Origin: Blastocystis sp. Blastoise
Taxonomy: Eukaryota; Protista; Bigyra: Opalinata
Direction of reading: 5' to 3'
NCBI GenBank assembly: GCA_039096225.1
Contig: JBBPEB010000034.1
Coordinates: 62,001 to 126,000, forward strand
DNA: 64,000 nucleotides
The notes under the pieces: model-generated
Told to the model about the DNA's origin: nothing
Databases searched by the model: none
The model's input: only the letters and a program-made list of their open reading frames with translations
In this document: in pieces, positions 15,873-54,600 of the stretch
How the letters are laid out: each line of letters starts with the position of its first letter
How positions within the stretch are numbered: position 1 is the stretch's first letter
Program-made: the position numbers and the translations under genes

Positions 15873-18405
15873 TTACATTGGAGAAACACTAATGGTTTCC
15901 CCAGTTTCCAAGTCTCTAGTGAGAGGTGAAATACTATTCTGACTGTTTCTTACAGAGGTTGCGTCATCGATCTGTGTGTTTGTCATCAATTGATCTTTAG
16001 TCTCTTCTTGAATATCTATAGATATATTCATATTTATATTCTTCTTCTTCTCTTCTTCTTCTTCTCTACCCACAAAAGTCCCGTTATCCCCAGAAATATC
16101 TTCTTTTGTAAGAGACGATACAGATTTATCCTCAGATTCCCCGTGGGAATAATGAGGATTCACATCAGCATGTAAACCATTCGGTATACATAATAATATT
16201 AACAATAATACAATAGCAATAGCTCCTATATATATATGTTATTATAATAATAATATTATATATATATATATACCATAAACAGCACCGACAAATATAGTTC
16301 CCCATTTGGTATATTCATATACTATTCCCAATATAGGAGAAGTAATAATCATAGCGACTTGACCTACCATGGATCCTATATATATATATATATATATATA
16401 TATATATATATATATATATACCTATAGAAAGAGCTTGTCCTTGAACTTCACTTGGAGATTGAGCCTATATGTATATATGTATATATGTATATATATATGC
16501 TATTATTATTATTATTATATACTGATAACATTGAAGGTGTAGCTGTTGCTAAGAATGAAGAACCCATAAACATAACACCTATATATATATATATATATAT
16601 ATATATATATATACCAATAGAAATAAATGCACCAATATAACTATGAAGGAAAGTCATACATATATATCCTATACCTATATATATATATTAATATATATAA
16701 TAATAATAATAATAATATATATATATACAAAGTAGAATACTTCCAAACAGAGTCAGTATCGCTATATAATAATAAACATAATAATAATAATAATAAACAT
16801 AATAATAAATATAATAATAATAATAAATACTAAGAGGGATATGTGCCTTATCATGGAGGACAGGAAGGAGATAAAATTGAACGAATGCGGATAAGCAGCC
16901 CGTTATACATAACATTATACTATAATTCAAAGAAGACACATTGATCGTATCCTGTAAATAATAACCATACCTATATATATATATATATATATAATAAACA
17001 TACACAATATAAATATATATATAATATATATATATATACATAGAATCAGAAATAACAATACAAGAATCATTTAAGAATCGAAGAATAAGAGCGAATATCA
17101 TAATAACATTGAAGTGTAACTTGGTCTTTGGCTCTATATATATATATATATATAAAGGATTCTTATTCATATAAATATACTTGGTTTATCTTGGGTATTC
17201 TTCTCAGTAGTGATTTCTATATATAATAATAATAATTATTATTATTATAGTTTATATAATAAAAACAAGAATAAACATAATTAATAGAAATAAGAATATC
17301 AATAAATAAATATATATATATACTTGTATTAACAAGTTTCTTTTCTTTATTAACAATAGAAGGAAGAGATTCTTTCATGAAAAATATAGATACCAATAAT
17401 ACTATACCTGCTAAAATACCAGCTACATAACTATATATATATATATATATATATATATATATAATTATATCATTGAGTAACAAATATAAAAAATAAACAA
17501 TAAATATAATAAATATAAAAAATAAATAATAAATATAATAAATATAATAAATATAATAAATATAATAAATATAATAAATATAATAAATATAATAAATATA
17601 AAAAATAAATAATAAATATAATAAATATAACAAATACAATAAATATAATAAATATAACAAATATAATAAATATAATAAATATATACAAAGGTGCGCGTAG
17701 ACTGATTTCTCCTAGAAATCCTCCGAGAGCTGGTCCAAAAGCGAAAGCCGCGCTGATTACACCTCCAAATATAGAAAGATAAGTAGTTCGTTCTTCGCGA
17801 GGAATACAATCCGTAATATATGCTTGAGCCAATACCATACTTCCAGCGAAGAGTCCCGTTAATGTACGTGTAATCACAAGAATAACCATAGTTGGGGATA
17901 ATGCTTGAAGAATTGGACCTATATATGTTAAAAATATAAATACAATATATAATACTTATATATTAAAATATTTTTAGAATATATGAAGAATCAATATGTA
18001 TATATATAAATATATACCAATAAAAGAACCACAAAGAGATAAAATAAGGAATGGTTTTCTCCCATAACGATCACTAAAATATCCCATATATAATGCACCT
18101 AAAGAAATGTAATGCATAAAATAATATTCAAAATAAATAATATATATATTTTATTAGCATTCAAATATAAAATATAAACCCTATTCAAAACGAACATAAA
18201 AACAGTATTTAAAATAGAATAAATAAAATATCTCTATACTGATGGCTTGAGCAAAAGCATAGCATCCAACAAGTAATCCTAATTCAAATGTAGATCCATT
18301 TAACTCTTTCGTTAAGAACGATATAATAGGAAGAACAAATGAGAATCCAAGCATATCAATAAATGCAGTTAAAAAAACTAAAATCAGTTTCGTAGGAAAT
18401 GCCAT
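15873..18405 (-). CDS. MFS drug/H+ antiporter, TetA/MFSD10/MFSD14-like, about 12 introns
   Basis: FIDMLGFSFVLP; motif A GYFSDRYGRKP; RTLTGLFAGS..AQAYITD; motif C AFAFGPALGG; QGQALSIG. Confidence 0.88.
16376..16421 (-). other. Intron that is purely G(TA)22G
   Basis: Removal restores QGQALSIG-SMVGQVAM in the MFS frame. Confidence 0.85.
16579..16614 (-). other. Intron that is purely G(TA)17G (36 nt, in frame, no stop)
   Basis: Removal gives AFISIG-VMFMGSS. Confidence 0.8.
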
Positions 18406-19180
18406 TTCAATTTAGAATCAATGATACAAGTAGAAGTGAAGTAATCCAATAATAAAATTATTCTCCAATAAAGAAAAATAATGAATACAAACACAGTTTT
18501 TCTTTTCATTTTTATAACCACAAAATCAGTGTATGGCTGAAAAAATAAGTGGCGTACTGATTTTTTAAAATTATTCTTTCAAATATTGTGTTTCTGAATA
18601 TATTATGAATCATAAATATATAATCTATGTTCGTAGAATTAATTCTAAAGCCAGAATTCTGCTATTTAAATTAAAATTGATACATTTGATTGTAAATAGT
18701 CTTATCAAATCTACTTAAATGTTAGTTCTATTATATTTTTATGAGTTATGATTGTTTTTCAGTTATAGAAGACATTAATTAAGTCAACATAAGATAATTT
18801 AAATATTACATTTGTCGATAATTGCCTGTATTTATTATTATTTTGATTTTCAAAATATATAAATACATTTATTATTCTTATTTTTTGAGAAATTATATAT
18901 TATATAAACATTAATAGTGTTTTTTAATAAAAAAGATTTTTTTAATTCAAAAGAAATGTTTCGAATCATTTAGATTCACTTTTGAAAAGCTAGTTATCCT
19001 TTTAAACAAATCTGAATAACCTAGAATATATTCTATTGTTGTTTAATAGTTCAAAATAGATATTAAAATCTAATACTATAACTTATAAATCATAAAAATA
19101 TTATATATATATATTTATAAACAACTAAACTACATAATTCTTGTCGAACTTTATATTGCTAGTAAAATTACTATATACTA

Positions 19181-51600: not shown

Positions 51601-54600
51601 AAGAAATATATAATAAGGACACTATTGAAAGTAGTATATTATATTTATTATATATTATATATTATTATTATTATATTTATTAGAATCTATTTCTGAAGTT
51701 GGTGCGTCACAACAGCAACAGCAATCTGCCGCCAAATCTGCCGCCAAATCTCCAGTTACTATATCTAATCCTGAGATGACATCATCTGCGTCATCCATCG
51801 TTGTCAATACTCTTCCTAATAATAATACTCTTCCTAATAATAATATATCTCCATCTTCTCCTGCTATGTCTCTTTCTAGTCTATCTACACTTATTAAGGA
51901 CGATACTAATAATAACATAAATAACAATAACACTGAGAATAATACCATTTATATACATAATAATAATGAAGAGATCAATAATGAAAATACAATAAGTGAA
52001 ACTGATACTAATTATAATATTATGAATACAAATAATGATAATAATAATGTAATCGATATTGATATAGATAATATGATTAATAATAATATTAATATGATTA
52101 ATAATAATAATAATATGATTAATAATAATAATAATATAATTAATAATATAATTAATAATAAAAATGATATATTTAATAATGATAATATAAATAATCTTGA
52201 TACTATAATTAATAATAATAATAATAATATAATTAAGAATAATAATAATAATATCTCAGATAATAATAATAATAATAATAGTATTATTCTATCTCCTCTT
52301 GGAACTAGTTCTCCAACAGATATTGCAATCCCTCCAAATAAATATGATTTATCATTCGATAAATATACTAATGAGAAATGGGTTTCTGCTGATGTGAATA
52401 ATAATAGTGAATATACACTAAAGAAGCAGGAAGTTCATCCACAGACAGAAGGAGAGAAGTATAATAATTATGATGATACACATTATTATAATGAAGATAG
52501 TTCACAGTATATAAATACAAATTATATTGAAGATGAAGATGCATCTGAGTATCCACCGGAATACTATTCCACGAACAATGAGGGATATAATGATGAATAT
52601 GACCAAGAACAACAAGGTATAGAAGAGAATGGCTATGTTGATTATAGTCAGTTAAGTCCCTCACATCCTAGCGATGATGAGGTATCTCCTACAGACTATA
52701 AGCAAAACTCTAATTCCCGCGGGATTCCCATCTCGCAGCCAGACTATGACAGTCTCTATGACGCAGCTTTTAGAGCTGTTCATTATAATGATGATCCAGA
52801 CCATGTGATATCAAACCAATTAAATGATTTATCTGATGACAATGCTAATAATAATAATATTTATAGTATCAATAATAACAATAATAATGATAATGATATC
52901 AGTAATAATGATGATAATAATAACAATAATGATGATAATGATAACAATAATGATGATAATGATAACAATAATGATGATAATGAGACTTCTCCTTCTCCTC
53001 CTCCTCTATTTAGTTTCTCTCAAGAAGATCTAGAACAACTATGTGATGATATATATTATAAAGCATATGCAAATAGTTATATTAATGTATATAATGATTT
53101 ACAAAATAAACAAAAATTAGAAAATAAGAAACTGAAAACATTACGAAAAGAAGTTCAAAAGACTTTTAGTAATAAATATCATTCGATTGCATATCAAAAG
53201 AATCACGGGAATCCTCCGAAACGAGAGAGTCCTACTTCTATGATTATTAGTAAATTAACAAATATAGAAACGTCATTAGTGAAACAGCCAGATACTATTA
53301 ATATGCAATCTACTCTCTTATATGTTAAACCTTATGTATATTATTATTCTAATTATTATTATTATATGTATATTTTATGTATATTATTCTATTTATATGT
53401 ATATTATTCTAGTTATTATTATTATATGTATATTATTCTATTTATACGTATATTATTCTATTATATAGTATTTATATTGTTTGTTATTACTCTATTTACA
53501 TTATTATATATAGTGTTCTTATGCAAATAAGTCTATTCGTTCGATATCGAATCTTATTACTGTTCTATGTAATGCTGTTATCACATTGAATAAACATCAT
53601 AAGAAATCTACAGTTGTATATATATATAACATATATAATATTCTTTATTTGCTATAATATGTTTCGTACAATATATATTAAAAATAAATATATATATATA
53701 TTCTTTTATCTAGCAAGCATTTTTCAATAAGTTTCATTCAACAATAAATGAGAAGAATTCACAGTCTTCAAGATCTGGAGATTCCCGTGAAAATAGAAAT
53801 ACAGACTCCTATTCTTCATCAAAGCAAGACCAAGGTATATATATATATATATATATATATATATATATATATAGAATCCCCTGCTATGTTTGGTAATAGC
53901 TTGTGTTCCAAATTGCGTTCTATTATACGTGCATATGCATCAACGCCTGTTAAATATAACGTCATGGATTCGTCATTGGAACAGTATTCCGACGCAATTA
54001 ACGTCATCCAAATTATTATGCAAATTCATAATCCTGTATATATATATATATATATATATATATATATATATATATATATATATAGACAATTGATAAAAAT
54101 CAACATGAAATTCTAAATATGACACCAGAAATGAAACAAAGTTTTTATTCCCGTGGGAATGATATTGTGTTATTGTTAACTCAGTGGTATGATTTATGTG
54201 TTGGGAATAGTATTCCGATACACAAACAGGATCCTGGAACGGCAAAGATCATTATTAATACTTTATTCTTTATTTTTCTTAAAGATAATTTAGATTTAAC
54301 TGTACATATATATATATATATATATATATATATATATATATATATATATATATATATATTCTTTTTTTTTTAGTATTTTATTTCGTATAAATTCATTTAT
54401 ATATTATTATTATTATTGTTTTATTTTATATCAATTCTATTTATATATTATTATTATTTTATTAATATTAATTCTATTTATATATATATAGTGGTCACAC
54501 TCAATGACAGCCTCTACTCTTCATCTTCTTCTCTCTCTTCTCTTTAAACATATTATATATAATTATAATGAACAGAATCACTATAATCAGAATCCAAAGG

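Follow-up and report, generated by a model that had tools for sequence, protein, structure and literature searches.

Introns consisting of pure TA repeats and TA runs at intron ends in a stretch of the Blastocystis sp. Blastoise genome: a possible single-stranded splice signal

A stretch of 64,000 nucleotides (nt) from Blastocystis sp. Blastoise (assembly GCA_039096225.1, contig JBBPEB010000034.1, positions 62,001 to 126,000; called the window here, with positions counted from its first letter) contains four tracts that are made up of G(TA)nG and nothing else, and these four tracts are GT-AG introns. Runs of alternating TA also mark one end or the other of most introns in the window. The reading we favour, tentatively and with prospects that we would put just short of even, is that UA repeats form a selected, single-stranded splice signal which is read by the major spliceosome and has been lengthened by slippage. 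A G(UA)nG intron is a natural minimal substrate, and it bears on the amount of sequence information and the U2 register which the spliceosome needs, as well as on the possible conversion of a microsatellite into a splice signal. All intron statistics refer to the 64-kilobase (kb) window alone.

Two of the four pure introns belong to an MFS transporter gene on the minus strand (15873..18405) and therefore read C(TA)nC on the plus strand. G(TA)22G at 16376..16421 (46 nt, phase 1) is intron 11 and G(TA)17G at 16579..16614 (36 nt, phase 1) is intron 9 of this gene. The exon at 17701-17919 is 100% identical to the NCBI protein WA158_006574 of Blastocystis sp. Blastoise (P0001 in our alignments), and an exact spliced mapping places this protein letter for letter, over 500/500 amino acids, onto 18405-15876 of the minus strand with 12 GT-AG introns, of which 12/12 begin with GTAT and 11/12 end with ATAG. 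Alignment with three Blastocystis-like homologues (P0002-P0004) shows no gap at either pure-intron junction. If it were retained, 16579..16614 would be in frame and free of stops and would add 12 Tyr/Ile residues, an insert which the three homologues do not have.

The other two tracts lie on the plus strand in a TOG-like gene (48674..57224, 21 introns, the 3' end of the model being uncertain), which we take to be CKAP5/XMAP215-like: G(TA)19G at 53835..53874 (40 nt, phase 1) and G(TA)24G at 54036..54085 (50 nt, phase 0). The gene model is 39% identical to a relative, P0084, over amino acids 47-653 and 24% over amino acids 1259-1575, and 12/15 of the junctions within these alignments have no gap inside 4 amino acids. 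The reading frame contains no stop with both tracts removed and seven stops otherwise. The exons on either side of 54036-54085 align to P0084 with a gap of 2-4 residues near the junction. In addition, a contig from run X1 (record 2) aligns to 53897-54028 with its positions 1-132 and to 54095-54295 with its positions 149-349. Between these blocks the genome has 66 nt and the contig 16; the difference is exactly the 50-nt tract 54036-54085, and the 16 contig letters are the 7 + 9 bases that flank it. This RNA support consists of a single contig of depth 3.9 from a run whose type was guessed as RNA, and the joint row for the contig at 54036-54085 itself was dropped, the site being a repeat. At 53835-53874 an X1 contig stops near the junction, which is a weak hint at most. 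Contigs were compared over 53716-54295 in this gene, and none from runs X2-X4 lies over that interval, which is no proof of absence. The four exact G(TA)17-24G tracts of the preliminary description were thus all found where they had been placed, with n = 22, 17, 19 and 24, and as spliced introns they are backed by a likely-RNA contig in 1/4, by an annotated protein in 2/4 and by the frame only in 1/4.

The wider set of introns was obtained with a gene model that combines a codon table with an order-0 intron background and does not use a splice-site matrix, so that TA at intron ends is not favoured by construction. It returned 144 introns in 13 gene regions, namely 142 GT-AG introns, which include the four pure ones, as well as one AT-AC and one GA-AG intron that were excluded from the counts (2/144). 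Its accuracy, 11/12 introns recovered, was measured on the MFS gene, which is its own training gene; 16 of the model introns appear dubious by eye, and in-frame TA introns are missed. The 142 introns have a median length of 80 nt and consist of 37% A and 54% T, i.e. about 90% A+T, in a window with 22% GC (19-31% per 2-kb bin). With 36-50 nt the pure introns are among the shortest of the set; the shortest model intron has 33 nt and is dubious.

Donors read GTATAT in 91/142 and GTAT in 128/142 introns, position +5 being A in 100/142 and G in 11/142, and acceptors read ATATAG in 81/142 and ATAG in 106/142. The earlier statement that most introns begin with GTATAT and end with ATATAG consequently holds for each hexamer taken singly but not for both together (60/142, 42%). 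Likewise, to place (TA)n at both ends in the majority of introns was an overstatement, since runs of at least 7 nt are present at both ends in 40/142, whereas a run at either end is indeed the rule (112/142 with at least 5 nt, 86/142 with at least 7 nt). Alternating runs of at least 8 nt cover 0.32 of the first 20 nt and 0.35 of the last 20 nt of the introns, compared with 0.13 of the middle 20 nt (95 introns of at least 60 nt; Wilcoxon p ~1e-5 for each end), 0.04 of intergenic and 0.01 of coding DNA. With the six core bases masked, the end cover is still 0.25 and 0.25. TA is therefore enriched at intron ends over both intron centres and intergenic DNA rather than equally frequent in all of them, and of the runs of at least 15 nt that the window contains, 45/65 reach a splice site of the model.

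The pure introns are joined to the others by a continuum of near-pure ones, as the acceptor run reaches at least 28 nt in 12/142 introns. Among those known from the model only, the intron at 13397..13442 (minus strand, 46 nt) reads GTATATAGAAC(TA)17G and has no T-N-A-Y, the one at 14252..14368 (minus) alternates TA over the last 48 nt before its final G, the one at 12486..12629 (minus) has a 44-nt acceptor TA run together with internal tandem TA-rich units, and the one at 59050..59157 (plus) has a 45-nt acceptor TA run. This continuum also bears on a possible assembly effect, by which real introns of imperfect TA-rich sequence with an ordinary branch motif would have been smoothed or collapsed into pure ones. 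The purity and length of the four tracts are as given by the assembly, long dinucleotide tracts are error-prone, and an RNA contig shows the product of splicing and not the content of the intron. Short reads, on the other hand, span tracts of 36-50 nt that lie between unique exons, and neighbouring imperfect tracts keep their interruptions, so that we regard such an effect as very improbable. With the dinucleotide frequencies of the introns themselves, the probability of a 34-nt alternation is ~1e-6 per start. An origin of the pure introns from duplicated exon ends was considered as well, but found no support in their flanks, which have no duplication in common.

A more serious alternative, possible if somewhat doubtful in our view, is a mutational pile-up in the presence of a permissive spliceosome. 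In that case only GUAU and (U)AG would be selected, intron and exon would be told apart by AU content together with a first-AG rule, and TA runs would gather at coding boundaries by slippage or boundary-linked mutation without being read as a signal. The AT richness of the window and the low-complexity content of 11.8-12.7% reported for isolates from tortoises (PMC12129017) speak in its favour, as does the composition of the introns, many of which carry (TTA)n or poly-T instead of TA runs. In addition, plant intron recognition is described as requiring AU richness (PMC3355732). The run lengths themselves are more difficult to reconcile with it. Given a 5-nt seed, the probability of a run of at least 15 nt is 0.26 and 0.23 at the two intron ends, as compared with 0.02 in intron interiors, 0.03 in intergenic DNA, 0.01 in coding DNA and 0-0.06 at decoys; intronic decoys of GTATAT and ATATAG extended to at least 15 nt in 0/21 and 0/10 cases. 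Runs of 11 nt continue in 48/62 cases at the ends and in 37/70 elsewhere (p 0.004), and runs of 13 nt in 41/48 and 17/37 (p 0.0001).

Neutral slippage was also simulated in 39 toy settings, which were unfitted and exclude simple models only. With only GTAT and ATAG fixed, the probability of a run of at least 5 nt reached at most 0.28 (observed, 0.56-0.63). With motifs of 5-6 nt fixed in all introns the short runs were matched, and fixed hexamers reproduced the observed frequency of runs of at least 7 nt, a point in favour of the pile-up. Runs of at least 15 nt nevertheless remained too rare even then (0.00-0.10 vs 0.13-0.17 observed), and pure introns arose in 0/2940 cases in one of the two sets of settings. 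Even with a fixed TA 5- or 6-mer, which the simulations need, long runs are thus under-produced. The long end runs, the decoys that do not extend and the failure of the neutral toy models together count for a selected UA signal.

Coding boundaries other than splice sites give a mixed picture. TA runs lie within 20 nt past the TAA stop in 6/13 genes (stops at 9724, 37198, 39116, 47914, 61041 and 61766); on the plus strand, the stop is followed directly by a TA run in the segments 37196..37219 (run of 22 nt) and 47912..47930 (run of 16-17 nt), which include the stop codon. Here 13/14 stop codons were kept, one uncertain stop having been removed, and all 13 are TAA. Their TA cover of 0.30 against 0.043 in the intergenic null supports a pile-up at boundaries, but the excess over positions 21-100 (0.11) is not significant (p 0.12, n=13), and no TA enrichment precedes the ATG (cover 0.03, n=14). 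The runs after stop codons also fit an unpaired UA mark beside coding exons. By analogy they could represent a UA-type 3'-end signal resembling the sites of yeast Hrp1, which reportedly binds (UA)n. This lineage has been reported to be without the downstream element of the human subtypes, and Table S5 of PMC12129017, as far as it was covered, lists no Hrp1-specific entry for any species.

The preliminary description had proposed that the (UA)n runs at the 5' and 3' ends of an intron pair with each other, bring donor and acceptor together and replace U2AF, as the AC and GT repeats of fish introns do. One part of this proposal found some support, as the run lengths of the two ends covary in introns (rho 0.31, n=138, the four pure introns being excluded; within-gene permutation p 0.0006) but hardly across exons (rho 0.07, n=122), with odds ratios at 7 nt of 3.9 and 1.3, a pattern of the kind on which the case of the fish introns was built. 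The covariation survives GC filters, length strata, subsets restricted to GTAT/ATAG introns and covariates for interior composition (partial r 0.31), it is equally present without the 16 dubious introns (rho 0.33, n=122), and the toy models gave a rho of at most 0.24. The difference between introns and exons is, however, marginal (0.24, 95% confidence interval -0.01 to 0.48), and the covariation is one of presence with presence at 5-9 nt: once both ends have at least 5 nt, rho is -0.07 (n=56), and runs of at least 15 nt at both ends were observed in 3 introns where 3.0 were expected, both numbers being small. Moreover, such a covariation would also be expected from tandem duplication, i.e. a shared origin of both runs, or from a protein bridge.

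Predicted structures do not support a general hairpin either. Among the 108/138 introns of 50-190 nt that were folded at 30 C, the predicted pairing of the first 20 with the last 20 nt had a median of 1.1 base pairs (bp), with at least 6 bp in 33/108 and fewer than that in 75/108. Native introns gave 4.18 bp and 15 controls with swapped 3' parts 3.89 +- 0.43 bp, in a test of modest power. Introns without runs showed no other complementarity of their ends (median 0.6 bp). The four pure introns, in contrast, are predicted to fold fully, with -13.9 to -25.4 kcal/mol including flanks at 37 C (z -0.5 to -5.2), which counts for the hairpin. In these predicted hairpins the pairing probability is 0.8-1.0 at +1..+6, 0.75-1.0 at -6..-1 and 0.7-1.0 across donor, branch zone and acceptor, so that they would hide the very sites which U1, U6 and U2 must bind. 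With native pairing equal to swapped pairing, no matching of lengths, runs also after stop codons and the splice sites of pure introns predicted to be buried, the hairpin as a general defining device is not supported; the reading is weak, and we consider it improbable. The suggestion that it would account for odd termini likewise loses force, because GA-AG and AT-AC introns are already described in subtype ST1 with its introns of mostly 30 nt (PMC5608401), and such termini therefore need no hairpin. A UA-binding factor or a single-stranded UA signal would, judged from the sequence, fit better.

In the parts of Lin et al. 2016 (PMC4691745) that were covered, the (AC)m-(GT)n introns of zebrafish and other fish are described as having long AC runs that co-occur with long GT runs, and their structure was established by probing and rescue. 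They share with the introns of the window the dinucleotide repeats near both ends, the weak or absent pyrimidine tract and, with the marginal difference given above, a tendency of repeats to co-occur across introns and not exons. They differ in having two distinct repeats which pair only with each other, a long-long co-occurrence and a frequency of ~2% of introns or fewer, whereas here one self-complementary repeat abuts or includes the splice sites at one end or the other of most introns, run lengths are not matched and the repeat can be the entire intron. The pure introns are not filed with structured introns of the fish type; in the way they work they resemble U2 introns whose 3' recognition has become degenerate.

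Our analysis confirmed the earlier observation that the four tracts lack a polypyrimidine tract and a branch consensus, as they contain no pyrimidine run and no T-N-A-Y. Many U2 lineages lack a polypyrimidine tract, so its absence does not exclude U2 membership. The branch consensus YUNAY/TRYTRAY, searched 18-40 nt from the 3' end, is absent from the four pure introns and unenriched in the 142. CTRAY occurs in the branch zone of 10/142 introns (10.3 in shuffled sequence) and CTAAC in 0/142, and pyrimidine runs of at least 5 nt are not enriched in acceptor zones (34/142) over intron middles (33/142). U12 motifs (the donor RTATCCTT and the branch motif TCCTTAAC) are also absent from the pure introns, and in the window similar sequences were found only at 24672-24737.

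In pure (UA)n, two bases before every A there is an A and not a U. Accordingly, (TA)n fits 0/5 of the branch-A modes given in PMC5378181 (TRYTRAY, TRYTRNAY, TRAYTRY, TRANYTRY and TRANNYTRY). It does fit TRY[A]TRY, which pure (UA)n would need and which is not among the enriched modes in the part of Taggart et al. 2017 (PMC5378181) covered here. What is shared with the modes of that study is a U2:branch helix that tolerates shifted bulges, and tolerance of alternate bulge positions is also cited there. In 38/142 introns TRY[A]TRY is the only mode present at -40..-11. With the A bulged after four pairs (UAU[A]UAU), (UA)n would pair with 8/8 U2 bases, two of them as G:U, compared with 6/8 in the canonical register. 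As there is neither a U two bases before any A nor a pyrimidine tract, branching of the pure introns needs a pairing mode or a small nuclear RNA (snRNA) sequence outside the published set, a problem which the pile-up leaves over. The 12 introns with at least 28 nt of pure TA before the AG make the branch question wider than four cases, and in 14252..14368, with its 48 nt of terminal TA, a branch point at the customary distance could only fall within (UA)n.

Inside the introns AG is strongly depleted once the distance from the donor exceeds 30 nt (43 AG, 252 CT) and much less so over the first 30 nt (52 and 95), and 116/142 introns use the first AG that ends at least 34 nt from the donor. This pattern fits a rule by which the first AG past a minimum length is used.

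Under the reading of UA repeats as a selected signal, donors of the type GUAUAUAU would pair with the 5' end of U1, for which 6/8 bases match, and (UA)n would pair with the branch-recognition region of U2 with the branch A bulged two positions upstream of its usual place. U2 would be recruited by a protein that can do without a pyrimidine tract, for which SPF45 is the named candidate, or by a UA-binding protein. Selection on a short UA motif would maintain permanent seeds that replication slippage lengthens, and pure introns would be the limiting case, reached when the sequence between both end runs is deleted or when the repeat expands, and kept at the observed minimum length of ~36 nt. The hairpin of pure (UA)n would then have to be opened for splicing and would not define the intron. 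A stronger form, which we think rather unlikely, would make (UA)n the sole motif for donor extension, branch site and acceptor. The branch A would then be bulged two positions upstream of its place in the canonical U2 register, or the U2/U6 snRNAs would be altered, and U2AF65 would be replaced by SPF45 or a UA-binding protein, perhaps with a further role in marking 3' ends past stops. If this were true, G(UA)17G would be a naturally occurring intron whose sequence specifies hardly anything apart from the two G's and a length.

In human cells, SPF45 has been described to take over from U2AF where introns are short and their pyrimidine tracts truncated (Fukumura et al. 2021, PMC8363638). The pure introns resemble these SPF45/RBM17-dependent introns in being short (here 36-50 nt) and in having no usable pyrimidine tract, and SPF45 is listed in tortoise Blastocystis; the human introns differ in keeping a truncated tract, and the role of SPF45 here is that of a candidate. 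In Table S5 of PMC12129017, as covered here, SPF45 (IPR040052) is counted 1, 2 and 2 times in the three isolates from tortoises but 0 times in the five from humans, SF1 has 1, 1 and 1, and the U2AF small subunit and PRP8 are present in all three tortoise isolates, for which METTL16/RlmF has 1, 0 and 0 and the N-terminal entry of U1-70K 0, 0 and 0. The same table has no entry of the U2AF large subunit for any of its 10 proteomes, but InterPro zeros can stem from gaps in annotation (one strain has 0 for PRP8, and two tortoise isolates have 0 for SF3B1), and all these counts are those of the isolates listed.

The tortoise-associated isolates (PMC10690189, PMC12129017) match the window in their GC content of 21-23% and in their long introns, and we take them for this reason as its closest published context. 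The sections of these reports that were covered describe longer introns and more low-complexity DNA, and do not mention TA-ended or pure TA introns. For Blastocystis, the literature searched does not describe introns of pure (TA)n or with TA ends, the search having extended to text and not to figures (e.g. the splice logos of ST1) or to three large supplements of PMC12129017. Human-subtype Blastocystis shares the GT-AG majority, rare GA-AG introns, U12 AT-AC introns and intron-dense genes (PMC5608401, PMC10690189, PMC12129017), but its introns are mostly 30 nt long (PMC5608401), as opposed to a median of 80 nt, 90% A+T and UA-repeat ends here. Plants share a U- or UA-rich intron that is read by proteins (Goodall and Filipowicz 1989; UBP1/RBP45/RBP47, via PMC3355732) and differ in that composition is read there, and not a strict alternating repeat at the splice sites. 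Two exon searches for further annotated proteins of the window found nothing, and a metagenome scan with one exon as query found no relative.

Several observations weigh against UA repeats as a selected single-stranded signal. No 5-nt run is found at either end of 30/142 introns, so long UA runs are not required. A published branch-A mode is held by 77/142 introns. TRY[A]TRY is no more frequent than in dinucleotide-shuffled sequence (77 vs 85.6, 142 introns) and shows a modest excess over intron middles (30/57 vs 22/57). The pairings refer to general 8-base motifs of U1 and U2, and with the shifted register the U2 helix has little stability (RNAduplex 0.0 kcal/mol, compared with -3.7 kcal/mol for the canonical 9-mer). 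An Rfam search of the window returned a tRNA and no snRNA. The covariation of intron ends is unexplained by the covariates and is predicted by the hairpin, and the runs after stop codons may equally be a mutational boundary effect unrelated to splicing. The reliance on one X1 contig with its dropped joint row, on an intron model judged by its own training gene, on unfitted simulations and on the counts of Table S5 with their gaps belongs on the same side.

The window also contains introns and TA-rich stretches of other kinds. (TTA)n-rich introns with short TA caps at 24474-24554, 59673-59871 and 60134-60197 (plus strand) are a trinucleotide counterpart of the pure TA introns; they have no complementary partner and no YTNAY in their last 50 nt. 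TA-rich introns that are in frame and free of stops, at 26509-26556 (plus, 48 nt) and 11474-11515 (minus, 42 nt), were read through by the model as Tyr-Ile runs, and annotation of in-frame TA introns calls for caution in this respect. Four TA-rich stretches of the plus strand (27460-27520, 23645-23665, 27912-27922 and 28276-28285), which lie in a presumably MON2-like gene, have no GT-AG ends of usable length and seem to be coding (LYIYICNYICNYILF, AIYIFY, DYIYID and DVYIEE, respectively). C(TA)nG palindromes at acceptors were considered as a signal and set aside, being not clearly above the interior rate: C bounds 18/61 of the even-length acceptor runs of at least 6 nt and 23/127 of the interior runs starting with T, and pairing into the exon adds 0 bp in 18/25 cases and 2-4 bp in a few (e.g. 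23515-23586 and 36896-36956, plus strand).

Some candidate introns have unusual termini. In a PPP-family phosphatase gene on the minus strand, a candidate GT-AC intron (40591-40703) has a 65-nt TA run followed by AC; its acceptor seems to be AC because the downstream frame RTILMNE... aligns with residues 1 to 64 of PP1, and CGTA repeats stand at both borders, where an assembly error is possible. A candidate GA-AG intron with a 31-nt TA run (43082-43157, plus) lies in a zinc-finger gene that we assume to be Rei1/ZNF622-like. The U12-like AT-AC intron at 24672-24737 (plus) has an ATATCC donor, TCCTTAAT near its end and TA runs beside both motifs, and GTATCC, with its first base at 51295, is a possible U12 donor of the GT type. 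Finally, the GAPDH gene (31991-33013, minus) is intronless inside an otherwise intron-dense window, and the tRNA gene is located at 3457-3529 on the plus strand (Rfam, 67 bits).

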